This document shows, in pieces, positions 16,145 through 58,633 of a stretch of DNA of 64,000 nt. Positions within the stretch are counted from its first letter, which is position 1. Each line of letters starts with the position of its first letter. The translations under genes were made by a program, and so were the position numbers. The stretch comes from Candidatus Rifleibacteriota bacterium (GTDB taxonomy: Bacteria > Muiribacteriota > Ozemobacteria > Ozemobacterales > Ozemobacteraceae). The notes under the pieces were generated by a model. It was not told the DNA's origin. It saw nothing but the letters and a program-made list of their open reading frames with translations, and ran no database searches. The stretch spans positions 10,155-74,154 of the forward strand of contig JAFPZP010000010.1 in NCBI GenBank assembly GCA_017417215.1, in the 5' to 3' direction.

Positions 16145-16588
16145 TTGATTAAGAATGGAGAAAGAGATATGAAAAAGACTTTTATCTTATTTATAATGCT
16201 TTCTGTTTTATTGGTGGCAGCAGGGATTAATGCTGAAACTATTCCAACAAAAGGCTATGTAACTCCAGATATAGGTCTTAACGTAAGATCTGGTCCTAGC
16301 GAAGGTTCTACTAAGATTGGCGCTCTTGAAAAGGGTACTGTTTTAAAAATAACTTCTGTTTCTGGAAAATGGTATAAAATATCTAGTCCTATGTCTGGAT
16401 ATGTTCATGGAGATTATGTTACTGTAACAGACTCTATTGAATCTGAAGATCCAACAGATGAACAGCAACCAGGACAAGAATCAAAAGTAGATGATTCAAC
16501 TCTTCCTCAGGAAGAACAAGAAAAAATTGGCTGCGATATAGATAGAAGCTTGGCTAATGTACAAATAATTAAGACTCCCATTAAATGA
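16145..16588 (+). CDS. Secreted SH3b-domain protein
   Basis: Signal peptide, then GYVTPDIGLNVRSGPSEGSTKIGALEKGTVLKITSVSGKWYKISSPMSGYVHGDYVTV, a bacterial SH3-like pattern. Confidence 0.5.
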   Translation: MIKNGERDMKKTFILFIMLSVLLVAAGINAETIPTKGYVTPDIGLNVRSGPSEGSTKIGALEKGTVLKITSVSGKWYKISSPMSGYVHGDYVTVTDSIESEDPTDEQQPGQESKVDDSTLPQEEQEKIGCDIDRSLANVQIIKTPIK

Positions 16589-18789
16589 TATCTGTTCCTA
16601 GACACTACTCAAAAAAGGGTAGCGTAATAATAGTAGTAATATGTATATTCGTTGCTTTGCTGATATTATTGGCTTCATTTTTTAAGTCAGCTACCAGCAA
16701 AGTCTATACTACTAAAAAATTAGGTGATACAATGCTTGCCAGAGAGTTAGCTAACTCTCTGGCGATTCTGTCTAATCATTATATAAAAAGTATAGAGTTA
16801 AAAAATTCGGGAAGTGAGATAAGAAAGCTTCTTAGTAAATCAATAGACAAGATGGAATCTGGTGAGGGGAAAATAAAAGAAGAGGATTTAAAGAAATATT
16901 TTGGTGAAATTTATTCAACTTTAATAAACAAATCTGGATTAAATAAGATTGCTTTGAAAGAACTTAAATGGATAATCAATAAGAAAGATTTTATTGCATT
17001 AAAAACAGACGGCAAAGATAGTCCTTATCCTAGAGAGAAAAAGGGTTATATTCGCTACTATATGAAGATTTCTTATTTGGTTCCAGGAAATAAGTCTCCA
17101 ATAACAGAAGAATATACATTTTTTTCAGGTATAACTGTAGTTGCTAATATTATACCAGTTTTATCCAAGTTTTCTTTTTATGTTGAAAATGTGTTTAATA
17201 ATAGAAGTATAGACGACAATCTTGTTTTAAGCACTTATTTCAACGTTGTGGATTCAACTGAGGGCGGCATATTAAATGATAATAGTCCTCGCCCCTGGGT
17301 TATAAACAATGGAGGAACACAATCTTATGATAATTATAAAGATTATGTGGCCGATTCCAGAGGTTTCATTTATCTTGGAGGGGGAACTAACGATAAACCC
17401 ATAATACTAGGTATTGCTAGAGGTTTTAGCAGTGCAACTCAAGGTGATTTTGGAGAAGATTTCCATTTTTATAAGAATGGTAGAGCTGGTTATTGGAAAC
17501 TTCGAGAAGTATGGCCTAAAACAGAGTCTAATATATTAGAGTCTGAAATAGGTCTTTGTAATGATGTAACCAGTAATTATAAGAAATGGCAGGAAAAATT
17601 TGGTTCTGCCGGTTACGATAAGATTTCCAGATATAATTCTATTTTCAGGCTTTATGGCACAGATGTAGATAAGTCTCCAACTTTGGTTTATGGATATGTT
17701 AATTCTATGCATGGTTCTGTAAAGGCTTTTAAAAGTGCTACTTCTGGAAGCAACTATCTATATTATATTGAAAAAGACAATGAATTGGATTTTATAAATA
17801 GTGCTGGTTATAATGATAATCCAGATGATTTTGTAAATGTTTATGACCTAAAGGCTTTTGGTGGTAAGTATCTGGATGAGTTTGGAGATCAGGCTACATT
17901 TGAAATATATAATGAAAAATATAGTACTAAAATAACTCAAAGTAGGTATAACAAAGACTTTACTTATTATTTAGCTAAAGAAAAAGGGAAATCTGCTTCT
18001 GACCAGCAGTATCCTTTAAAATATTGTACTGATTTGTTAAAAGGTGACTTGATTAAGCTTTGTGAAGATGCAAGTGATGATAGTTTGTTCTTAGCTGTTC
18101 CAAACGCAGAAGGATCGGCTGAATTTAGAAATATTTATTCTAATTCGACCAACTTAGAAGAATTAGATAAGTTTCTTGATGGTGAAAAGTTAGGTTTTGA
18201 GAATACTTCTGAAACAAGCAGGATAGCATATTATTTTAAGCCTGATAACTCTGAAGATATTGAAAAGTATTTGATAAATAAAGGTTTGTTAAAGAAGAAA
18301 GATTTGTCTCTTGATGGATGGCTATATATTGACTGTGATGAAGGTTTTGAAGTTGTACTTAAAGATTTGAACTTGTTGAGTCATGGCGGTATTATTGTAT
18401 CTAATGGGAATGTTACTTTAAAAGGAAATATCAAGAGTGTGTCTGGTGCCCATTTGAATATAGTTGCTCTTAAGGGGAATATTACTATTGAGAGAAGTGT
18501 AGATACTGTAGATGCTTCTTTAATTGCTGGCGGTGGTCAGGTAAAATTAGATGGTAATGAAAAAGACAAAAAGTTAAATATTAAAGGTAATATTGTTATG
18601 AAGAATATACCTTGTGATAATATAAAGAATAGAGTTGATTATGAGAAAATGAAACGCGGTCTTTTCTTGAATTATAATACCGATCTTTCCGCTATTCCGT
18701 TTTCTAACAAGTATAATGTTGAAGAATCCAAGACAGAATTACCTCTGTTAATGTTCAATATAAATGAAAAGACGAAAATGTTAGATTGA
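16585..18789 (+). CDS. Large membrane-anchored hypothetical protein (734 aa) with a beta-helix-like C-terminal repeat region
   Basis: N-terminal TM SVIIVVICIFVALLILLASFF. The C-terminus has repetitive GN(I/V)xLKGNI segments. The start overlaps the previous gene by 4 nt. Confidence 0.4.
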   Translation: MISVPRHYSKKGSVIIVVICIFVALLILLASFFKSATSKVYTTKKLGDTMLARELANSLAILSNHYIKSIELKNSGSEIRKLLSKSIDKMESGEGKIKEEDLKKYFGEIYSTLINKSGLNKIALKELKWIINKKDFIALKTDGKDSPYPREKKGYIRYYMKISYLVPGNKSPITEEYTFFSGITVVANIIPVLSKFSFYVENVFNNRSIDDNLVLSTYFNVVDSTEGGILNDNSPRPWVINNGGTQSYDNYKDYVADSRGFIYLGGGTNDKPIILGIARGFSSATQGDFGEDFHFYKNGRAGYWKLREVWPKTESNILESEIGLCNDVTSNYKKWQEKFGSAGYDKISRYNSIFRLYGTDVDKSPTLVYGYVNSMHGSVKAFKSATSGSNYLYYIEKDNELDFINSAGYNDNPDDFVNVYDLKAFGGKYLDEFGDQATFEIYNEKYSTKITQSRYNKDFTYYLAKEKGKSASDQQYPLKYCTDLLKGDLIKLCEDASDDSLFLAVPNAEGSAEFRNIYSNSTNLEELDKFLDGEKLGFENTSETSRIAYYFKPDNSEDIEKYLINKGLLKKKDLSLDGWLYIDCDEGFEVVLKDLNLLSHGGIIVSNGNVTLKGNIKSVSGAHLNIVALKGNITIERSVDTVDASLIAGGGQVKLDGNEKDKKLNIKGNIVMKNIPCDNIKNRVDYEKMKRGLFLNYNTDLSAIPFSNKYNVEESKTELPLLMFNINEKTKMLD

Positions 18790-47974: not shown

Positions 47975-47990
47975 TATTTTCGTTTATTTT

Positions 47991-48845
47991 TTAATCATTC
48001 AAGGGTTTACCACAGTATTTGCAGTATTTGGCGTCAGCGTCATGCCCTTCTTTACAGCAAAATGGGCAAGTTTGAGTGGTTATTTTATTTTTTTGCGGAA
48101 AAATCATTTCTGAGGTTACTATTCCTGTTGGAATAGCTATGATTCCATAGCCTAAAAGCATAATAAAGAAGGAAAAAGCTTGCCCCATCGGTGTCTTGGG
48201 CGATATGTCTCCATAACCAACTGTAGTAAGTGTAACAACAGCCCAATAAACGCTAACAGGGATACTGGTAAAACCATTTTCAGCACCTTCTATAACATAC
48301 ATTACAGAGCCTAAGCAAAATACAATTATGAATACATAAAATGTGAATACAGCTATTCTTTTGATGCTTCGCTTCAGAGAATAGAGCATATTCTCAACTT
48401 CGTGTGTGAAATGAACTAATTTGAATAGCCTGAAAACTCGTATGAATCTCAATATTCTGACTACTGATAGATATTGAAAATCTTGAAGACTAGGAATAAT
48501 ACTAAAATAATTTGGCAAAATAGATATTAAATCTATTATTCCAAAAAAGCTTATAGCATAATGCAGGGGCTTAGCTACACAATATAGTCTCAAAAAATAC
48601 TCTATTGTGAAAAGTATAGTGATTGTCCATTCTACATAATTAAAAAGAGTTCCATATGCAAGACGGTATTTTTCTACGCTGTCTAAAGAAGTAACGAAAA
48701 CACTTATAAAAATACAGATTAATAAAGCAACATCGAAGGCTTTTCCCCAAAAAGTATCTGCTTCAAAAATAATTTCGTGAATCTTTTTTTGTAATGGGGA
48801 AAGAGAAGGAGTGTGTCTGATTTCAGAATAGTTTAGCTTTATCAT
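47991..48845 (-). CDS. Voltage-gated-like K+ channel (Ion_trans) with a C-terminal zinc-ribbon tail
   Basis: The K+ selectivity filter TVGYGD, an S4-like RILRFIRVFRLFKL, and the C-terminus CPFCCKEGHDADAKYCKYCGKPL. Confidence 0.7.
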   Translation of the reverse strand: MIKLNYSEIRHTPSLSPLQKKIHEIIFEADTFWGKAFDVALLICIFISVFVTSLDSVEKYRLAYGTLFNYVEWTITILFTIEYFLRLYCVAKPLHYAISFFGIIDLISILPNYFSIIPSLQDFQYLSVVRILRFIRVFRLFKLVHFTHEVENMLYSLKRSIKRIAVFTFYVFIIVFCLGSVMYVIEGAENGFTSIPVSVYWAVVTLTTVGYGDISPKTPMGQAFSFFIMLLGYGIIAIPTGIVTSEMIFPQKNKITTQTCPFCCKEGHDADAKYCKYCGKPLND

Positions 48846-48998
48846 AAGCCATATTCTACTCTTTTAAGATAATTAAAACAAGATTTTATTAGGTTCTGAA
48901 TAATGCAAGGGCAGATGTTTTTAATGATTGAATATTTTTAAACTCTGTATTTTTTTGCGTTTTTAGTTATAATGGAAAAATAGAATTCAGGAGTTAGC

Positions 48999-49130
48999 AT
49001 GTTTAATAATTACATAAACAAACCTGTAGGTGATTTAACAAAGGATGAAGGTGGTATTATTTATTGTGAATATCATGGTGATGTTGAGAAAAAATACAAG
49101 AAATCTACACCTGGATCTGAAACTGAATAA
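48999..49130 (+). CDS. Possible 43-aa small protein directly upstream of the large helicase gene (not on the ORF track)
   Basis: ATG at 48999 with AGGAG 5 nt upstream. It translates MFNNYINKPVGDLTKDEGGIIYCEYHGDVEKKYKKSTPGSETE* with a TAA stop at 49128-49130. Confidence 0.2.
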   Translation: MFNNYINKPVGDLTKDEGGIIYCEYHGDVEKKYKKSTPGSETE

Positions 49131-49190
49131 TACTTTTATAACAGGAAAACAAAGCAACTTTTCAAAATATAATAAAAAAGGTGAAAATAA

Positions 49191-52100
49191 ATGAGTGTAA
49201 CTGTTGCAACTGAAACAGCTTCGCAGACAAATTCTTCTGCAGCTCCATCTACAACTGCCGCAGCGGCTCCTGCTGCAAACAATACTGCTAATTCTTTACC
49301 GCAGCAATACCAGACCAAAAAGGCTATGTGGGAACGAAAGCTTCTAGACTTAGGTTTGAGAAACCAGCTTATCAATATGCGCAAGTCTCGCACGCTGATT
49401 CCTCTTATAACTAATACAATTAACGAACTAGAAGACGCCTTGGCTGATGGTGAAGAATTCTTAATAACTGCAAAACCGGAAAAAACAGTATTTTCAGAAG
49501 AAGAATTCAAATTTGATGATTTATTAAAAACAGAAATCAAAGATGAAGATCTACAAAAGGAATTCGCAAAACACCATTTGTTTTCATCATTAACAGAAGG
49601 CGAATTAAAGAAAGCAATAAAAGAAGTCTACCGCTCAGCCAAAAGTTCTATCGAAGAAAACGGCGCCAATACTCTTTATTTGGCTCTTGGTCTTTTAAAA
49701 TGGTTTGAATCTAAGGGGAATAATCCGCCTGCCCGTTATGCACCGATTATTCTTTACCCAATAGATATAATCAGAAAATCAGCAGCTCAAGGCTACACAA
49801 TCAGTCTTAGAGACGATGACCCACAGCTCAACATAACAATGCTAGAAAAGCTGAAACAGGATTTCAGAATTGAAGTTGAAGGTTTGGATCCTCTTCCTCT
49901 AGATGAACACGGGCTAGACACACGTAAAATTTTTGAGACAATACGTGAATATGTTAAACCTCAGGAAAACTGGGAAGTTATAGAAGTTGCTGCAGTAGGT
50001 ATATTCTCCTTTACTCAGTTTGTAATGTGGAACGACCTGACCAACCGTTCTGACGACCTAATTAAGAATAAAATAGTCAAGAGTTTGTTGGAAGGCAAAC
50101 TCACCTGGGAAGCTGAAGGCATGGAAACTGGCGACCACGTCTGCGAAGATGATGTTTTTATGGCTATGCCAACAGACGCTTCTCAGCTTTTTGCTGTCAG
50201 AAGTGCTTGCGAAAACAAGTCTTTCGTTCTTCACGGTCCTCCAGGAACAGGTAAATCTCAGACTATTACTTCTTTGATTGCAAATGCCTTAGGGCAGAAT
50301 AAAACCGTTTTATTTGTAGCAGAAAAGATGGCTGCTCTAGAAGTAGTTCAAAAACGTCTTGCTTCTATTGGCTTAGACCCATTCTGCTTAGAACTTCATT
50401 CAAATAAATCTCGCAAAAAAGCTGTTTTGGAAAAATTACAGCAGACTACAGAATTCCGCAGACCTAAAGCAAGCGATGATTATAAGCAGAAAGCAGAAGA
50501 AATATCCAAACTTCGCAAAGAACTTAATGTTTATTCCGAAGACCTTCATAAGAAGCAAAGCTATGGTTTAAGCATATATGAGCTTATAAATGAATATGAA
50601 CTAAATTCAGACTTTCCCGATATTCCTGCTTTTTCTCAAGAAGCTTTAGGGAATGTTACTAAGGAACTACTCGACAAGCAGAATCAGATTATTGAATCCT
50701 TAATTACTTCTGCTCGTGCTGTTGGTCACCCTGCTGAACATGCTCTTTCAAGAGTAGGTTGTAAAGAATACAACCAGAGTCTTAAAGACGACCTTAATTC
50801 TAAGGCTACAAAATACTTGAATAATCTAGAAAAGCTAAAAGAATTAGCTGACGAATTCAAGAATAAAGCAGAACTAACAAATTTAGATGACGACATTGAA
50901 TGGACAAAACTTTTAACAACTGCTGAACAGGTTGCCAAATGGTCATACTTACCAAAAGCCTGGGCTGACCACAAAGGCATGAATATTTGCATGACTGAAA
51001 TAGCCGAAATGGCTGACCATTTCGCAAAGTCAAAAGAATTGCGCACTGAACTTGAAAAGAACTGGAAGCCAGAATTTTTCGATCAGAATGGTAGCGAACT
51101 TTCAGCTACTCATACTCAGAAGAGTAATTCCTGGTTTATTCCTAGATTCTTCGGGTTATGGAGCTTGAAAAGCAAAGTTTCATCTTTTGCAAAATCTTCT
51201 GTTAATGCAGATACTTTAGGCAAAGATCTTTCAGACCTTTCTTTATACCAGTCTGAAAAAGCTAAGGCTGATGAATTATTTAAAAAATACACTGCTGAAC
51301 TTGATTCTCTTTATGATGGTGAAAACACCGATTGGAACAAGGTTAAAACTTATGCTGTAGATGCAAAAGAAAGCTGCGCCAAACTTAACGAACTTTATAA
51401 TGATGAAGAACTTCGAATAAAGCTTTGTAGCAATAAAGAACTGACTCAAAAAGCTCAGGAAGTTCAAAAGGCAAACGAAACAAGACTTTCTTCCCAGAAA
51501 GAATTTGCTGAAGTTGCTATGCCAAAGCCTGTTAATCAGTTTAATACGCCTGTTCTGGAAGACATAGAAATGTGTAAGAATATCAACAAGCACGTTGAAG
51601 GTATAAAAGAATGGACTCTTTGGAATAAAACCTCAAGCGAAGCAGAAGAAGCCGGTTTGGCTGTCCTTGTCGAAGCCTATCAAAAGGGTATGGATCACGA
51701 CGATATAAAGGGAGCTTATTTAAAATCTATCAGTAAAGGCCTTGCTGCTCGTGCTATAGATGCTTCTAGCACTCTTAATAACTTCTCTGGGAAGGTATTT
51801 GACCAGAAAGTAGACAAATTCATAACTCTTGATAAACAGGTCAGCGCTCTTGGAAACCGTGAAATAGTCTATCGTTTGGCTGCAAAACTTCCTGACTTTA
51901 CTAGAGAGGCTGCTCAAAGCTCTGAACTAGGCATTTTACAAAGAGCTATCAAGAGCGGGGGTAGGGGAACCTCATTAAGAAAGCTTTTTGGGCAGATTCC
52001 TAATATTCTTCCAAGACTCTGTCCCTGTATGCTCATGAGCCCTATATCTGTTGCTCAATATATCGACCCCAATAAATCACCTTTCGATCTGGTAATCTTC

Positions 52101-53963
52101 GACGAAGCTTCACAGCTTACAACCAGCAAAGCAGTTGGTGTTTTGGCTCGTGGTCAGAATGCAGTAATCGTTGGTGACCCCAAGCAGATGCCGCCGACTT
52201 CATTCTTCTCTTCTGCTGCAGTTGATGAAGATAACCTTGATTTGGAAGATATGGAAAGTATTCTCGACGACTGCTTAGCCTTGAATATGCCTCAAACTCA
52301 TTTGTTATGGCACTACAGAAGTAAACACGAAAGCTTGATAGCTTTCAGTAACCATAACTTCTACGAAAGCAAGCTTTTCACTTTCCCATCAGTAGACGAC
52401 AGAGAATCTAAGGTTAATTTCGTTCCCGTAAAAGGCACTTTTGACCACGGTTCTGGCAAGCGCTACAACAAAGAGGAAGCCGAAGCTGTTGTTAAAGAAC
52501 TGATTCGCAGAAGCAAAGACCCCAAACTTTCTAAATACAGTGTTGGTGTTGTCACTTTCAACATTCCTCAGCAGAACCTCATCGACGACCTCTTTACTGA
52601 AGCCTGTAAGACAGACTTAGAACTTGAAAGCTGGGCTTATAAGAAAGAAGATCCGTTATTCATCAAGAATCTTGAAAATGTTCAAGGTGATGAACGCGAT
52701 GTAATCATATTCTCAGTCGGTTACGGACCAGACAAAGAAGGCAAAGTCTCTATGAACTTCGGTCCGTTGAACAAAGACGGCGGTTGGCGCAGACTTAACG
52801 TTGCTGTTTCCCGTTCTAAACGCGAAATGATGGTATTCAGCTCTATGCTGCCGGAACACATAGACACCAACAAGACCAAAGCAGAAGGCGTTATCGCTCT
52901 TAGAAACTTCCTTGATTTTGCTAGGAATCCGAAAGGCTATTCTTTCTCTGCTGAAAAGAATGCTGCTCAAAACGGCATTATAAAGAGTCTTAGCAAAATT
53001 TTGAAAGAACAGGGTTATTCTGTAGATACCAACATTGGTAATTCTGAATTCAAGATTGATTTAGGCGTAATCGACCCGAGAAATGAAAACAGATATCTTC
53101 TCGGTATTTTGCTCGACGGACCTGTTTATGCAGAATGCAAGACCACCAGAGACCGTGAACTTTCACAGGCAAGTGTTCTTAGAGGCTTAGGCTGGAACAT
53201 CATTAGAATGTGGAGTATGGATTGGTGGGAAAACAAGGATATTGAAGTTGACAAGCTGTTAGATAAACTAGACAAGCTTAAAAACGACAAATCCATAGAA
53301 CCAGAAAAGAAAGAAGAACCAAAAGCAGAGCTGAAACCTGTTGAATACGAAGAACCAGGCACTGCTCCTGCCTCTGACTCTGGAATATTTGCCAAACCTT
53401 ATACTGCAACTCAATTACCTCAAACTTCATTGTCATCAGATGATTTTATGGCTAGAAAGAACGCAGCAGAGCTCAAAAAGCGTGCTATGAAAGTAATTGA
53501 AACAGAAGCTCCTATCACAGAAGGTTTGCTTACCAAACGTCTGATTCAAAGCTATGGAATAACAAGAGTTGGAACACGTGTTCAGGCATATTTAGACGAA
53601 TTCTATGCAAATCTTTCTTTAAAAACCACAACTCAGTCTGACGGTCAAAAGATTTACTGGAATCCAAAGCAGAATCCTGATGATTACAGCGATTGCAGAG
53701 CAGGCAAAACAGATGCTGACAAACGTGATTCTAAGGATATTCCAATAATAGAAGCCTCTAATGCTGTTTACAAAATCGTTTCAGATCAGATTGCACTCTC
53801 TTCTGAAGATTTAGCCAAGGAAGCGGCAAAACAGCTTGGCTTCTCACGTCTCGGCACAAATCTTACAACTCTTATGGATGCCGCCGTAGAAATGAACAAA
53901 GCCGCCGGCTACCTGACCGTCGCTGAAAACGGCAACATCACCCTGAACAAAACAGAAAACTAA
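49191..53963 (+). CDS. Large DUF4011 - SF1 (Upf1/DNA2-like, COG1112) helicase - Vsr/PD-(D/E)xK-like endonuclease - DUF3320 protein; a candidate defence helicase
   Basis: The N-terminus WERKLLDLGLRNQLINMRKS is DUF4011-like. Walker A is LHGPPGTGKSQTITSLI. VIVGDPKQMPPTSFF, VTFNIPQQ and VQGDERDVIIFSVGY are SF1 motifs. C-terminal GNSEFKIDLGVIDPRNENRYLLGILLDGPVYAECKTTRDRELSQASVLRGLGWNIIRMWSMDWW is a Vsr-like REase segment, followed by a DUF3320-like tail. Confidence 0.75.
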   Translation: MSVTVATETASQTNSSAAPSTTAAAAPAANNTANSLPQQYQTKKAMWERKLLDLGLRNQLINMRKSRTLIPLITNTINELEDALADGEEFLITAKPEKTVFSEEEFKFDDLLKTEIKDEDLQKEFAKHHLFSSLTEGELKKAIKEVYRSAKSSIEENGANTLYLALGLLKWFESKGNNPPARYAPIILYPIDIIRKSAAQGYTISLRDDDPQLNITMLEKLKQDFRIEVEGLDPLPLDEHGLDTRKIFETIREYVKPQENWEVIEVAAVGIFSFTQFVMWNDLTNRSDDLIKNKIVKSLLEGKLTWEAEGMETGDHVCEDDVFMAMPTDASQLFAVRSACENKSFVLHGPPGTGKSQTITSLIANALGQNKTVLFVAEKMAALEVVQKRLASIGLDPFCLELHSNKSRKKAVLEKLQQTTEFRRPKASDDYKQKAEEISKLRKELNVYSEDLHKKQSYGLSIYELINEYELNSDFPDIPAFSQEALGNVTKELLDKQNQIIESLITSARAVGHPAEHALSRVGCKEYNQSLKDDLNSKATKYLNNLEKLKELADEFKNKAELTNLDDDIEWTKLLTTAEQVAKWSYLPKAWADHKGMNICMTEIAEMADHFAKSKELRTELEKNWKPEFFDQNGSELSATHTQKSNSWFIPRFFGLWSLKSKVSSFAKSSVNADTLGKDLSDLSLYQSEKAKADELFKKYTAELDSLYDGENTDWNKVKTYAVDAKESCAKLNELYNDEELRIKLCSNKELTQKAQEVQKANETRLSSQKEFAEVAMPKPVNQFNTPVLEDIEMCKNINKHVEGIKEWTLWNKTSSEAEEAGLAVLVEAYQKGMDHDDIKGAYLKSISKGLAARAIDASSTLNNFSGKVFDQKVDKFITLDKQVSALGNREIVYRLAAKLPDFTREAAQSSELGILQRAIKSGGRGTSLRKLFGQIPNILPRLCPCMLMSPISVAQYIDPNKSPFDLVIFDEASQLTTSKAVGVLARGQNAVIVGDPKQMPPTSFFSSAAVDEDNLDLEDMESILDDCLALNMPQTHLLWHYRSKHESLIAFSNHNFYESKLFTFPSVDDRESKVNFVPVKGTFDHGSGKRYNKEEAEAVVKELIRRSKDPKLSKYSVGVVTFNIPQQNLIDDLFTEACKTDLELESWAYKKEDPLFIKNLENVQGDERDVIIFSVGYGPDKEGKVSMNFGPLNKDGGWRRLNVAVSRSKREMMVFSSMLPEHIDTNKTKAEGVIALRNFLDFARNPKGYSFSAEKNAAQNGIIKSLSKILKEQGYSVDTNIGNSEFKIDLGVIDPRNENRYLLGILLDGPVYAECKTTRDRELSQASVLRGLGWNIIRMWSMDWWENKDIEVDKLLDKLDKLKNDKSIEPEKKEEPKAELKPVEYEEPGTAPASDSGIFAKPYTATQLPQTSLSSDDFMARKNAAELKKRAMKVIETEAPITEGLLTKRLIQSYGITRVGTRVQAYLDEFYANLSLKTTTQSDGQKIYWNPKQNPDDYSDCRAGKTDADKRDSKDIPIIEASNAVYKIVSDQIALSSEDLAKEAAKQLGFSRLGTNLTTLMDAAVEMNKAAGYLTVAENGNITLNKTEN

Positions 53964-53981: not shown

Positions 53982-54019
53982 AAAAAATACCCGAACCTAA
54001 TGATTCGGGTAGTTTTTAT
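53982..54019. terminator. Bidirectional rho-independent terminator between the helicase gene and glgB
   Basis: An A-run, then stem acccgaa with loop cctaatga and ttcgggt, then agttttta. Confidence 0.55.
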
Positions 54020-54033
54020 TAATCTAATTCAGC

Positions 54034-56253
54034 TTATTTGCTGAGCTTGAAACCAACTACTGCCAAAGGTGGAACTTCAATGCTGATTGAATGTTCACGG
54101 CCGTTACAGCCGTAGAGTTCGCTCCATCTTCCACCATAGTTGCCTATGTTGGAACCGAAATACATTTCTGAGTCAGAATTGAGTATTTCCTGATAGAAGC
54201 CGTCTCTTGGAACACCTACACGATAGTTGCTGTGAGGAACCGGGGTGAAGTTAGCAACGAACAGAGTTATATCATCTTCGTTTTCGCCTTTTCTTATCCA
54301 GCTAATAACGCTTTCGTCAACATTGTCAAAGCTTATCCATTCAAAGCCTGAACCATCGCAATCTTTCTGATAAAGTGAAGGTTCAGTTCTATACAAATAG
54401 TTGAGGTGACCGATAAGGTTCTTTACGCCTGCATTAGAGTCGAATTCCAACAGGTGCCAATCTATGCTCTGATTGCTGTTCCATTCATTCCACTGACCGA
54501 AGTCAGAACCCATGAATACAAGCTTCTTGCCCGGCATTGTCCACATCATACTGAACAACAAGCGCAGGTTAGCAAACTTCTGCCAGAAATCGCCCGGCAT
54601 CTTGTTGATAAGGTTGCCTTTTCCATGAACAACTTCGTCGTGAGAAAGAACATAGATGAAGTTTTCGTTGAAAGCATAAATCAACGGGAAAGTCAGGTTG
54701 TTGTGATGATATTTTCTGTAGATTGGGTCTTTCTGGAAATAGCTGAGAGTGTCGTTCATCCAACCCATGTTCCACTTGAAGGTGAAACCCAAACCGCCAT
54801 CTGCTGCTGGTCTAGAAACCATCGGGAAAGCAGTTGATTCTTCAGCAATATTCATAGTGCCGGGGTGGAGTTCCTGGCATACAGAGTTCATCTGTTTCAA
54901 GAAGTCGATTGCTTCGAGATTTTCGCGACCGCCAAATTTGTTTGGTACCCATTCATTTGCTTTTCTAGAATAGTCTAGGTAAAGCATTGAAGCAACTGCG
55001 TCAACTCTTAAGCCGTCTGCGTGATATTTATCTAACCAGAACAAAGCACTGCTGATTAGGAAGTTTCTAACTTCGTTTCTGCCGAAATTGAATATCAGAG
55101 TTCCCCAGTCTTTGTGTTCACCCTGTCTTGGGTCTGCATGTTCAAAAAGAGCAGTTCCGTCAAATTTTGCCAGACCGTGAGAATCTTTGGGGAAGTGAGC
55201 TGGAACCCAGTCTAATATTACGCCGATGCCTTCTTTATGCATATAATCTACGAAATACATAAAGTCTTTCGGATTACCGAAACGGCTTGTTGGAGCGAAA
55301 TAACCAGTTACCTGATAGCCCCAGGAAATATCTAATGGGTGTTCTGTTACAGGAAGCAGTTCAACGTGAGTGTAGCCCTGTTCCTTAACGTAATCAGCAA
55401 TAATTGGTGCTAATTCGCGATAGGTAAGGAAGCGGTTACCTTCTTCAGCATTACGCATGAATGAACCAAGATGGCATTCATAAATTGAAACTGGTTCTTT
55501 GTGCCAATCTTTTTGGGCTCTGGAAGTCATCCATTCGCCGTCTTCCCAATTATAACCACTCAAATCATAAATCTTGCTGGCGGTTTTGGGTCTAACTTCT
55601 GCATAGAATGCAAATGGGTCGGCTTTTTCCAACAAAGCACCGTCTTTGGTCTTGATTTCAAACTTGTAGTTCTGACCAGTCTGCAAACCAGGAATGAAGA
55701 TTTCCCAAACGCCTGAAGTGCCAAGACTTCTCATAACATGACGACGGCCGTCCCATCTGTTGAAATCGCCGATTACACTAACACGGCGTGCATTTGGAGC
55801 CCAAACTGCGAATGAAACACCGCCAAGTTTGTCTTTGAAATAATCAAAGTATCTTATATGAGCACCAAGCTTTTCATAAAGTTCGTGGTGATTGCCCTGG
55901 CTGAAATAGTACTGATCCATTTCACCAACAGTTGGCATAAAAGCATAAGAATCATAAAATTCTGCACTAGCACCGTTTTCATAATAGCTTTTAATGCGAT
56001 ATGGGAAAACCTGATTTCTTTCAGTGATTACAGCTTCAAAAAAGCCTGCATCATGAAGCTTTTCCATCTTAAAAGCAGTGCCTGTATTCAGATCGATAAC
56101 TTCTGCCCTGACTGCATCTGGCAAAAAGCCTCTTACAGCAACAACTTTTTTGCCTTCCTGTTCACATTCATGAGCGCCTAATACTTGGTAGGGGTCATGG
56201 TGATTGGTTCCGATAATCAAATCAATTTCGTTTTGACTAACTATTTGAGTCAT
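54034..56253 (-). CDS. glgB: 1,4-alpha-glucan branching enzyme
   Basis: GH13 catalytic segments [12 protein letters not shown] and DFGQWNEWN, the CBM48-like N-terminus, and a length of 739 aa. Confidence 0.9.
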
Positions 56254-56428: not shown

Positions 56429-58633
56429 ATGAGAAAACTACGAAAAAAACATACTGTTTTACTATTTATATTATTAATCCTTTCCTGCTTGTTACTGATT
56501 GCAGTCGATGAAGCCTTTGCTCGTGCCGGCGGTGGTGGTGGCGGAGGCGGCGGAGGTGGCGGCGGAGGCGGCGGTCACGGTGGCCGCGGCGGTAAAGGCG
56601 AAACACTAATATTGGATCTTTTTGTTAGCAGTTGTAAAACACGTGGTATTGCAACAACTCTGTTGCTTTTTTCCCCTTTTATATTGTTTCATTTTACAAG
56701 TTGTTTTGCAGCTTCATTTTATTATAAAGAAAAGGCTTTATCCAGAGTTTTGTTCTTTCTAGGAGCCTTCTTTTTTGGTGGCATTTTTTGTTTTTCGTGT
56801 TTTGGAACTATTTTTTTAGTTTTACCTATTGAATGTGTGACATTAAAAACCATTATAGAGTCAAGAATCAAATATGGTCGTTTTATTACTTGTAACGAAG
56901 AACAATCTAAAAAATTCTCCACAGATAATACACCAAAAGAAAAATTAGCTTTAATGAAAATAAAAAAGAATAATCCTTCTTTTTCATTAACAGATTTTAA
57001 AACAAGAATAAAAAAAGCTTTTAAAATTATTCAGGATTCTTGGATGGATCAGGATTTATCAAATGCGGAAATGTTCTTAGCTGATGGAACTTATGAACAG
57101 TTTCAAATACAAATAAACGGAATGATTAAGGACAATACCGTAGATATAATGAAAGAGCTGGAAATCCAAAATGTTTTTGCAATAAAAGCAGAAAACTCTT
57201 TTGATTATGATTCTATATATGTAGCAATTCAAGCAAAAGCCATTAATTATTTAATGAATAAAAGAACAAAAGCTATCATAAAAGGAGATTCTACAGAACC
57301 TGAATTATTTGCAGAAGTTTGGTGCTTCATGCGAAGAAAAGGGGCTAAAGAATTAAACAGCAAAGGCTTAATAGAAGGATACTGTCCTAATTGCGGAACA
57401 CATATAGAAGGAGCAAGATTAATACAGTGCCCTTCTTGCAATGCTTTGCTAAAATCTGGTCAGCATGACTGGATTCTTGCCGGCATTTATCAGTCTTCTG
57501 AATGGAGAGACACTCATAATTCACATATTCCTGGATTGAAAAATTTATATAAATATGACCCTTCATTTAACATACAGAATATAGAAGATAAACTCTCAGC
57601 CATTTTCTGGCGTATGATTGAAGCTGTTAGAAACCAGAGTGCCGATTCTATTCTTAAAATATCATCAGATAAATTTGCCCAGGATTTTATAAAATCATCT
57701 TTCAAACACAAAGAAATATCAAGATATAATAAAGCTGGAACAGATTCTATTGAAATAATAGGTATTTCAGAAGAAGACGGCAAACATGTACTCTTAGGAC
57801 AAGTTATATGGAATAGTTGTATAACACGAAATGGCAAAGAAGAAACTATTCATCAAAAATCTGTCTTTATTCTTAAAAGAGATATTAATACCAAAACAGA
57901 TACAAGAAAATGCTTCTGTAGTTCACATTGTATAAATTGCGGAGCAGCAGAAACTTTTAACAGCAGTAATTACTGCGAATACTGCAATACTGCAGTTAAT
58001 GACGATAAAAAAGATTGGATTCTTACAGATATTTGTAATATATCTGATCTTTTAATAGGAAAATACCTAAATCATGCTAATATTTATGATAAAAAGGAAG
58101 TTGTTGTTAATCAGGAAAAGACTGTAGCCAAAGCTAATCAAATTATTGCAGAGCCTACAGATTACAATGATTCTACTGAAGAAGAATATGAAGACGATTC
58201 TCTGGATATCAATTTCTGGAGCCTATTAGGCAAATACTCAGTAAAAGATCTGCTTAGAATGTGCATAGCTGTAATGCTTGCAGATGGAGTAATAGACAAA
58301 AACGAATTACAAATAATCAGAAAAATCTGTGAAATAGGCTATATCCCCGAAGAAGTTCTTCAAATGAATATAAGAGAAATGCAAAACGCAGATAATCCTA
58401 TTGAACATGTTTTAGAAACATCAGCAATAGGATTAGATAAAGATTTGCTCAAATTATTAATTAAAATAGCCGTCTCAGATGGAGATGTAGCAAAATCTGA
58501 AGTTGATATAATCTTTAAGATGTCAGAAAAGATGCATGTTTCAAGAAATGAAACCATTGATTCCATAAATAATATTTATGAGAAAAGATGGAAAAAGAAA
58601 CTAGATCAGTCTATTTTTTCCCAAAGGTTTTGA
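56429..58633 (+). CDS. Membrane protein: signal/TM, (Gly)n tract, two TM helices, two Tim44-like domains each carrying an inserted CxxC...CxxC zinc ribbon, and a C-terminal TerB-like domain
   Basis: ARAGGGGGGGGGGGGGGGGHGGRGG. Repeat 1: FAEVWCFMRR...CPNCG...CPSCN...HDWILAGI. Repeat 2: VFILKRD...CINCG...CEYCN...KDWILTDI. The C-terminus LLRMCIAVMLADGVIDKNELQIIRKICEIG ... LLIKIAVSDGDVAKSEVDIIFKMSEKM is TerB-like. Confidence 0.5.
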   Translation: MRKLRKKHTVLLFILLILSCLLLIAVDEAFARAGGGGGGGGGGGGGGGGHGGRGGKGETLILDLFVSSCKTRGIATTLLLFSPFILFHFTSCFAASFYYKEKALSRVLFFLGAFFFGGIFCFSCFGTIFLVLPIECVTLKTIIESRIKYGRFITCNEEQSKKFSTDNTPKEKLALMKIKKNNPSFSLTDFKTRIKKAFKIIQDSWMDQDLSNAEMFLADGTYEQFQIQINGMIKDNTVDIMKELEIQNVFAIKAENSFDYDSIYVAIQAKAINYLMNKRTKAIIKGDSTEPELFAEVWCFMRRKGAKELNSKGLIEGYCPNCGTHIEGARLIQCPSCNALLKSGQHDWILAGIYQSSEWRDTHNSHIPGLKNLYKYDPSFNIQNIEDKLSAIFWRMIEAVRNQSADSILKISSDKFAQDFIKSSFKHKEISRYNKAGTDSIEIIGISEEDGKHVLLGQVIWNSCITRNGKEETIHQKSVFILKRDINTKTDTRKCFCSSHCINCGAAETFNSSNYCEYCNTAVNDDKKDWILTDICNISDLLIGKYLNHANIYDKKEVVVNQEKTVAKANQIIAEPTDYNDSTEEEYEDDSLDINFWSLLGKYSVKDLLRMCIAVMLADGVIDKNELQIIRKICEIGYIPEEVLQMNIREMQNADNPIEHVLETSAIGLDKDLLKLLIKIAVSDGDVAKSEVDIIFKMSEKMHVSRNETIDSINNIYEKRWKKKLDQSIFSQRF

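Follow-up and report, generated by a model that had tools for sequence, protein, structure and literature searches.

The stretch of DNA analysed here (64 kb in length, hereafter the window) contains an uninterrupted ATG open reading frame (ORF) at 49191..53963 on the plus strand, which encodes a complete protein of 1590 residues. PADLOC, NCBIfam and dN/dS mark it as a short-form ProA/PDC-S37-like helicase-nuclease gene. It lies between an ion-channel gene (47991..48845, minus strand) and the convergent glgB (54034..56253, minus strand), which confirms the preliminary description, where a K+ channel gene and glgB had been named as its neighbours. The flanks comprise dxs, the ion-channel gene, glgB and cheB. 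The ribosome-binding site AAAGGTG (49177..49183, plus strand) precedes the start codon of the large gene by 7 nt and is kept in all of the 12 close loci. Further upstream, a promoter-like 31-nt motif ending in TATAAT (48943..48973, plus strand) was found as an exact pattern match, which is also present in the conspecific contig L044. The distance from this motif to the ATG is 217 nt in the window versus 84 nt in L044. On the 3′ side, a bidirectional intrinsic-terminator-like hairpin of 24 nt (53988..54011), is common to the large gene and the convergent glgB; of the hairpin terminators described earlier as bounding each gene, this downstream one was confirmed. Between the promoter-like motif and the large gene there is a small ATG ORF of 43 codons (48999..49130, plus strand; GC3 0.16), and the ribosome-binding site ascribed to it was recovered as AGGAG, 6 nt before its ATG.

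The GC content of the large gene is 0.40 versus a window mean of 0.357, and its GC3 is about 2 SD high. Composition is not informative on a recent horizontal acquisition, because the codon usage of the gene is inside the range of the window and glgB is even more GC-rich. When PADLOC was run on the window, as had been proposed, the large gene matched a defence family over its full length (PDC-S37, see below), and none of the other 43 large ORFs matched any defence family. No defence signature was found in the flanks of the close relatives. The window locus is not a defence island. Two ORFs of 734 aa each in the window are not paralogues.

Domain architecture of the large protein

The large protein starts with a low-complexity stretch rich in S, T, A, Q and N (residues 1–45; 49191..49325, plus strand). 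In the alignment, this stretch occupies the place of the N-terminal module of about 330 aa in full-length ProA. It is followed by DUF4011 (residues 50–221; 49338..49853, plus strand; Pfam E 2e-43), in which the motifs WERKLLDLG.RN and EENGAN are invariant in the alignment of relatives. The AF2 model of DUF4011 has a pLDDT of 76, and Foldseek found no significant structural relative of this fold in PDB or BFVD.

The helicase is split into two parts. Lobe 1A (Pfam AAA_11, residues 328–525; 50172..50765, plus strand) carries the Walker A motif GPPGTGKS at residues 349–356 (50235-50258), which is invariant in 15 of 15 aligned sequences. It is separated from the second lobe by an insertion of about 430 residues (526–958; 50766..52064, plus strand), which has no Pfam match. 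The length of the insertion is kept across the relatives, and it is under purifying selection. Lobe 2A (residues 959–1225; 52065..52865, plus strand; Pfam AAA_12 at 1023–1218) contains the invariant Walker B FDEAS (970–974), motif III VGDPKQMPPT (994–1003) and motif VI GWRRLNVAVSR (1198–1208). In a PDB sequence search, it aligned with residues 364–609 of IGHMBP2, and the nearest solved sequences to both lobes were IGHMBP2, Sen1 and Upf1. The Upf1-like SF1 motor is complete, with every ATPase/helicase motif intact. The motor motifs are shared with the Upf1-like SF1B helicases IGHMBP2, Sen1 and Upf1, whereas these proteins are without DUF4011, the Vsr-like nuclease and the DUF3320 tail. They function in RNA and DNA metabolism rather than in immunity.

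A Vsr/DUF559-like PD-(D/E)xK nuclease domain follows the motor (REase_MTES_1575, residues 1267–1360; 52989..53270, plus strand). The C-terminal Vsr/REase-like match, which had been named beforehand as a test, is present both in sequence (Pfam E 1.4e-24; 86.4 bits, with the gathering score at 38.2) and in fold (Foldseek matches to 3hrl and 3r3p, probability 1.0, target TM 0.60–0.65). By motif comparison, its conserved acidic residues are D1290, D1309 (D1309-G1310), D1321 and E1323. Where Vsr/DUF559 nucleases classically have the glutamate of ExDG, the window protein has Leu1307 (ILLDG). Among the ProA relatives, a glutamate occurs at this position only in P. aeruginosa ProA (VECDG), and the others have Leu, Ile, Met or Cys.

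The protein ends with DUF3320 and a C-terminal tail (residues 1417–1590; 53439..53960, plus strand), identified by Pfam, AF2 and Foldseek, with DUF3320 itself at residues 1417–1465 (Pfam E 6e-11). The tail is predicted to be a tandem winged-helix module. Its AF2 pLDDT is above 90, and it gave weak Foldseek matches to YceH, JetB, ScpB, ESCRT-II and cullin WHB (E 3e-3 to 8e-2). The Pfam matches are far stronger than chance would give and bear out the four-part composition first proposed for the 1590-residue protein, namely DUF4011, Upf1-like helicase, Vsr-like nuclease and DUF3320.

Family assignment

The protein passed the NCBIfam equivalog model of ProA (NF058533.1, 'anti-phage protein ProA') with 1632.7 bits versus a cut-off of 1500. 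The match covers positions 329–1903 of the 1903-position profile, and positions 1–328 are unmatched. The PADLOC v2 profile of the single-gene phage defence candidate PDC-S37 was matched by residues 45–1577 over profile positions 11–1540 of 1550 (1198 bits, E = 0). In contrast, the NCBIfam model of Hhe (NF042953.1) gave 770.5 bits, which is below its equivalog cut-off of 2000. The match to Hhe was not end to end; the best stretch in NCBIfam was residues 748–1441 against profile positions 1058–1742 of 1797, and the PADLOC Hhe profile (PDLC02194) aligned only with residues 845–1365, against profile positions 1258–1785 of 1911. Relatives of the protein scored 755–865 bits against the Hhe model, and none of those tested reached 2000. 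On these sequence comparisons, the gene product is a short form of ProA/PDC-S37, which is a sister family of Hhe. The Hhe-type identity suggested in the preliminary description holds as a relationship and not as membership.

As in ProA (profile positions 329–1903), DUF4011 is followed by the split Upf1-like helicase with its long insertion, then by the MTES_1575 nuclease and last by the DUF3320 tail, and full-length ProA members are its nearest relatives outside its own clade. The long relatives cover positions 1–1903 of the profile. Full-length ProA scores of 1769–2372 bits were obtained for the closest long relatives, a Bacteroides record, Acinetobacter plasmids and a conjugative P. aeruginosa plasmid. 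The N-terminal module of these long forms is conserved, belongs to no Pfam family and is sometimes preceded by DUF4145. The window protein differs in being without the N-terminal 330 or so profile positions, and its gene in being chromosomal, solitary and conserved within the clade. With PDC-S37 it shares the full-length profile match and the single-gene organization, but that candidate was defined by its neighbourhoods and the window locus is outside any defence island. In a literature search, no experimental description of an anti-phage protein under the name ProA was found, and no mention of PDC-S37 was found.

In Hhe, too, DUF4011 is joined to an SF1 helicase and a Vsr-like nuclease within a single chain, as Pfam finds in the window protein, but only the C-terminal helicase-nuclease part of the window protein aligns well with it. 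Hhe protects against lambda, T3, T7 and PhiV-1, and its activity is abolished by the nuclease mutation E1731A. Hhe originates from the defence-island prediction study of Gao et al. 2020 and not, as the preliminary description had it, from E. coli functional selections.

A different context is known from P. aeruginosa, in which a large DUF4011 gene flanking the defence hotspot cDHS1 is a core gene in every isolate (PMC10250203). It resembles the window gene in its stable place on the chromosome throughout a whole lineage. The cDHS1 gene reportedly has a small conserved hypothetical gene upstream (PMC10250203), whereas the small ORF of the window is not conserved; the likeness is at the level of DUF4011.

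Absence of the N-terminal module

The module missing from the window protein could have been encoded by a separate gene. Five N-terminal modules were searched by tblastn against the window and all loci, and only the DUF4011 part was found, so a split gene was rejected. Neither the window nor any close relative encodes the module, which makes the protein a true short form. About one tenth of the full-length relatives are likewise short forms; the representative search was queried with the DUF4011 region only.

Conservation and distribution

The large gene is under strong purifying selection, with a whole-gene dN/dS of 0.05–0.08 against nine relatives. In every structured domain, the nuclease and the tail included, dN/dS was 0.02–0.15. 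The N-terminal low-complexity stretch evolves fastest (0.15–0.32), and only this stretch and a linker of 50 residues reach 0.16–0.35. No frameshift and no stop was observed in ten orthologues.

No informative close locus has lost the gene, which is mostly linked to dxs. The two stay together in the window, L044, L045, L046/L007/L010, L001 and L008, and the gene has resided beside dxs in its own clade for a long time. The large protein diverges at the rate of its housekeeping neighbours; in L001, for instance, identity is 80% for Dxs and 78% for the large protein. A core gene in a housekeeping neighbourhood had been named at the outset as the situation that speaks against a defence system, and it is partly approached here, in that the gene is a stable dxs-adjacent resident within the clade. 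The flanks are wholly different in the close relatives L012, L009, L003 and L004.

Outside the clade, the nearest relatives are proteins of about 50% identity in unrelated gut Clostridia. Matches to the family were found in 636 plasmid records, 19 of them near full length. When the neighbours of distant relatives were scanned (16 loci, 123 proteins), they included type I restriction enzymes, a type IIG enzyme and a JetB/C/D Wadjet set.

Proposed function

The best explanation, which we hold to be fairly probable, is that the product of the gene, a single polypeptide, acts in defence as an ATP-dependent helicase-nuclease and is an N-terminally short member of the ProA/PDC-S37 family. Judging from the named families, the motor would load on nucleic acid that is foreign or aberrant, for example phage DNA or a replication intermediate, and the winged-helix tail and DUF4011 would probably aid binding. 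The motor could then translocate and deliver the nuclease, by which the invader would be cut and the propagation of phage or plasmid limited. The loss of the N-terminal module of about 330 residues suggests sensing or regulation unlike that of full-length ProA. As the gene is a stable dxs-adjacent resident among housekeeping genes in its clade, the putative defence role rests on homology. If it is correct, a ProA/Hhe-type single-gene system would be added to the lineage of the host. It would further mean that a protein kept by selection can do without the module, a clue to where the sensing and regulatory parts of the family lie.

The retention beside dxs, the housekeeping-like rate and the very low dN/dS are at least as typical of core maintenance as of a defence gene. 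The short form might instead be a domesticated housekeeping enzyme that serves the DNA or RNA maintenance of its own cell, in repair, at replication intermediates or in RNA surveillance in the manner of eukaryotic Upf1-like helicases, with the immune role gone. Consistent with this are the dxs linkage across the window and close loci, the divergence equal to that of neighbouring housekeeping proteins and the dN/dS of 0.05–0.08, together with a 64-kb window free of other defence genes, a codon usage in its range and the loss of a module that may have been a sensor. On the other side, the protein passes a curated anti-phage equivalog model, its relatives of about 50% identity in unrelated gut Clostridia have the patchiness typical of transferred accessory genes, L012, L009, L003 and L004 have entirely different flanks, and the wider family occurs on plasmids and beside restriction-modification and Wadjet genes. 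We also know of no bacterial housekeeping pathway with such an architecture. The DUF4011 gene that is core in every P. aeruginosa isolate (PMC10250203) adds a precedent in favour of domestication. Weighing both sides, we consider domestication unlikely. The more specific course of events, that an immune helicase-nuclease of the ProA type lost the N-terminal module and became a core, dxs-linked enzyme of genome or RNA maintenance in its own clade, appears slightly more doubtful still. It would have turned a defence gene to a housekeeping use. Domestication would make the gene a case in which an immune helicase-nuclease became fixed in the core genome.

A third reading, that the protein is a truncated ProA which is decaying or catalytically dead after the loss of the module, is very improbable. 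The missing profile positions 1–328 and the Leu at the position of the ExDG glutamate could be taken as signs of inactivation. However, the frame is intact in ten orthologues, each structured domain is constrained (dN/dS 0.02–0.15), the helicase motifs are all invariant, full-length ProA relatives above the curated cut-off have Leu, Ile or Met at the same site, and short forms recur in about one tenth of the full-length relatives. An inactive relic is therefore strongly disfavoured.

Because both family and architecture are in the catalogues already, the gain is incremental whether the gene acts in defence or has been domesticated, and the finding is an ordinary one with a modest architectural twist.

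The small upstream ORF

The 43-aa ORF had been put forward as a possible co-transcribed partner of the large gene. It lies between the promoter-like motif and the large gene and so may be co-transcribed in the window strain. No family match was found for it in Pfam, PADLOC or NCBIfam, and no Rfam element was found. Its conservation was assessed by tblastn and blastn against 13 close loci, and tblastn found no such ORF upstream of the orthologue in any of 12 close loci. The only tblastn matches at E <= 1 were to gene tails in L009 and to a chance 8-residue match elsewhere in L012. In L044, the large protein is 99.6% identical and the ORF is absent. It corresponds to a strain-specific indel of 133 nt in the 5′ leader, by which the promoter-like motif is 133 nt closer to the large gene in L044. 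An ORF that even a conspecific contig lacks is not a partner, and a role as a conserved partner is refuted.

A two-gene system, with the 43-aa ORF as a co-transcribed antitoxin, regulator or leader peptide, can be dismissed as the least credible reading, since the AGGAG site and the location behind the promoter-like motif are outweighed by its absence upstream in 12 of 12 close loci and in L044, by the lack of a family or Rfam match and by a sole similarity to the tails of unrelated genes. With no conserved neighbour and no conserved small ORF in the close loci, the large gene has single-gene status. The 43-aa ORF weakly resembles two L009 genes for unrelated exported proteins at their C-terminal tails (E 0.003 and 0.03), and the ORF is probably the 3′ remnant of a lost gene.

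Domain architecture and family assignment

The large gene is an uninterrupted ORF of 1590 codons on the plus strand (49191–53963). Pfam assigned five domains to its product: DUF4011 (residues 50–221, E 2e-43), the helicase lobes AAA_11 (residues 328–525) and AAA_12 (residues 1023–1218), REase_MTES_1575 (residues 1267–1360, E 1.4e-24) and DUF3320 (residues 1417–1465). An insertion of about 430 residues, without a Pfam family, separates the two lobes. The large gene is flanked by dxs, a minus-strand ion-channel gene and glgB, which is convergent with it, and is followed by a bidirectional hairpin (53988–54011). The preliminary description of the locus was therefore accurate in its domain order (DUF4011, helicase, Vsr-like nuclease, DUF3320), in the setting between the ion-channel gene and glgB and in the terminator, which was verified for the downstream hairpin only.

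The name Hhe, given in that description, did not hold at curated thresholds. The large protein scored 770 bits against the NCBIfam Hhe model (NF042953.1, cut-off 2000) and the PADLOC Hhe profile covers only residues 845–1365, so that this identity was rejected. The PADLOC single-gene candidate PDC-S37 matched end to end (1198 bits), and the NCBIfam model "anti-phage protein ProA" (NF058533.1) gave 1633 bits versus a cut-off of 1500, with the alignment starting at profile position 329 of 1903. In relatives of about 50% identity from gut Clostridia, the match to the ProA profile starts at position 1 or 2. The same holds for the proteins of a Bacteroides finegoldii record, of Acinetobacter plasmids and of a conjugative plasmid from P. 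aeruginosa. These long relatives score 1769–2372 bits (the Acinetobacter protein stops at profile position 1710), and none of them reaches the Hhe cut-off. The large protein is a short variant of an already catalogued family. A literature search turned up no publication on either ProA or PDC-S37. Hhe itself was predicted from defence islands by Gao et al. 2020 and was not, as the preliminary description had it, recovered by functional selection; it is reportedly active against lambda, T3, T7 and PhiV-1, and reportedly inactivated by the nuclease mutation E1731A.

The short N-terminus

Eight close clusters share 71–93% identity with the window protein and are 1562–1642 aa long. In the alignment, it and they have about 45 low-complexity residues in place of the 330–500 N-terminal residues of the long forms, a module without a Pfam family save an occasional weak DUF4145. 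When five such modules were searched by tblastn against the 64-kb window and all close loci, only the DUF4011 part was matched; the gene is therefore not split, and a module encoded elsewhere was rejected. Short forms were also found in a few Clostridia (loci L021, L029, L030, L033 and L035). Searched exhaustively, the DUF4011 region matched 6282 representative clusters at E ≤ 1e-3, a number that falls to 909 at E ≤ 1e-30; among the full-length proteins in the best 150 matches, short forms make up about a tenth as read by eye. With the module absent from the window and from all close loci, the large protein is a true short form of the ProA-like family, presumably sensing or regulated differently from the long forms. 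The proteins of L030 (a Saccharofermentans MAG) and L035 (Ruminococcaceae bacterium KHP2) are short, ProA-like and about 1480 aa, with DUF4011 from residue ~5; KHP2 might serve as an experimental model of the short architecture.

Conserved motifs, selection and predicted structure

In the alignment, the helicase motifs are invariant: Walker A GPPGTGKS (349–356), Walker B FDEAS (970–974), motif III (994–1003) and motif VI (1198–1208). Among solved structures, IGHMBP2, Sen1 and Upf1 come closest in sequence. Against nine orthologues, dN/dS was 0.05–0.08 over the whole protein and 0.02–0.15 per structured domain, nuclease and tail included; higher values (0.16–0.35) were confined to the N-terminal low-complexity stretch and a 50-residue linker. 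The nuclease domain conserves D1290, D1309-G1310, D1321 and E1323. The position of the classic ExDG glutamate is Leu1307, and it is non-Glu in most ProA relatives too, with Glu only in the Pseudomonas protein among those compared. The AF2 model of residues 1225–1590 (pLDDT 82) matched endonucleases of Vsr/DUF559-like fold (3hrl and 3r3p, probability 1.0), and the Vsr-like nuclease proposed earlier for the C-terminal region is thus present in both the Pfam and the fold matches. The DUF3320 tail in this model weakly resembles the tandem winged-helix proteins YceH, JetB, ScpB, ESCRT-II and cullin WHB, and the model of the DUF4011 region (pLDDT 76) had no significant match in the PDB and BFVD libraries. 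These results indicate an intact, selectively maintained, single-gene protein in which a Upf1-like motor is joined to a nuclease of the Vsr type and to a tail predicted to be winged-helix.

Genomic context and probable role

By homology to ProA and Hhe, the large protein would load on foreign nucleic acid, translocate along it driven by ATP and then cut it. By this analogy a role in defence is the favoured reading, and a reasonably probable one. The main rival is that the protein has been domesticated as a core maintenance enzyme. In several lineages the large gene is found downstream of dxs with one gene or none in between, and the gap is a variable slot (window 47975–49190; L046 2131–4628; L045 8143–8211). 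The slot holds the ion-channel gene in the window and the conspecific contig L044, holds a 763-aa ORF with no function assigned in loci L046, L007 and L010, and is empty in L045, L001 and L008. The large protein has diverged as much as the adjoining housekeeping proteins; the composition of its gene is only mildly elevated and the codon usage is typical of the window. Close relatives at L012, L009, L003, L004 and L002 have other flanks, in which no defence signature was found. Of the other 43 large ORFs in the window, not one matches a PADLOC model. Domestication would fit the steady linkage to dxs, the setting among housekeeping genes, the low dN/dS and an earlier case in P. aeruginosa, where a DUF4011 gene is core (PMC10250203). 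The patchy taxonomic distribution and the ties of the family to plasmids and defence islands speak against this reading, which is the unlikely one of the two. Explanations other than defence and domestication are marginal.

In contrast to the window's clade, the wider family is mobile and defence-associated: matches occur in 636 plasmid records, and the neighbours of 16 distant loci include type I restriction enzymes, one type IIG enzyme and one JetB/C/D set. The type I enzyme adjoining the ProA homologue at L015 (1800–4841) was identified directly, and the complete JetB/C/D (Wadjet) set was placed in the Gemmiger MAG L018 (1549–6804) by ORF sizes. The B. finegoldii record L040 (NZ_OY725931.1, "plasmid 29"), typed as a plasmid, looks like a chromosomal fragment because rpsA, glutamine synthetase III and trxB are among its genes; a convergent gene of the reverse-transcriptase family comes immediately after its full-length ProA gene.

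The closest genome matches come from MAGs of gut and rumen, which bear the label Candidatus Avigastranaerophilus (Gastranaerophilales, Melainabacteria) or "Candidatus Riflebacteria". Orthologues 83–92% identical to the window protein come from MAGs with the latter label (L012, L013 and L007; NCBI titles), and a 73% orthologue carries the former; one of the two labels is probably wrong. Downstream, glgB (54034–56253) is more atypical in composition than the large gene, with the second-highest GC among the window's large ORFs (0.425) and a GC3 of 0.415 versus a window mean of 0.260. It is followed by a 734-aa protein with Tim44-like and TerB domains (56429–58633), which is not a paralogue of the 734-aa ORF at 16585–18789.

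The upstream 43-codon ORF

The small ORF (48999–49130, plus strand) does have the ribosome-binding site described earlier (AGGAG). Its proposed role as a co-transcribed partner was rejected, since none of the 12 close loci has a counterpart upstream of the orthologue and it is absent from L044. The large gene's own site, AAAGGTG, is kept in all 12. The ORF has no family match in Pfam, PADLOC or NCBIfam, and no Rfam element is present. L044 and the window are 94–98% identical in flanking DNA and 99.6% in the large protein, and share on the upstream side a 31-nt promoter-like motif ending TATAAT, located 84 nt from the ATG in L044 versus 217 nt in the window. The difference is a 133-nt indel in the 5' leader (window 48943–49190 versus L044 5934–6048), and the window's extra segment is the 43-codon ORF. 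Residues 11–34 of its product weakly resemble (E 0.003 and 0.03) the C-terminal tails ("GDL.EDG.I.C..HG") of two tandem genes for signal-peptide/exported proteins upstream of the orthologue in L009 (128–193 and 1415–1474). This resemblance suggests that the ORF may be the 3' remnant of a lost gene.
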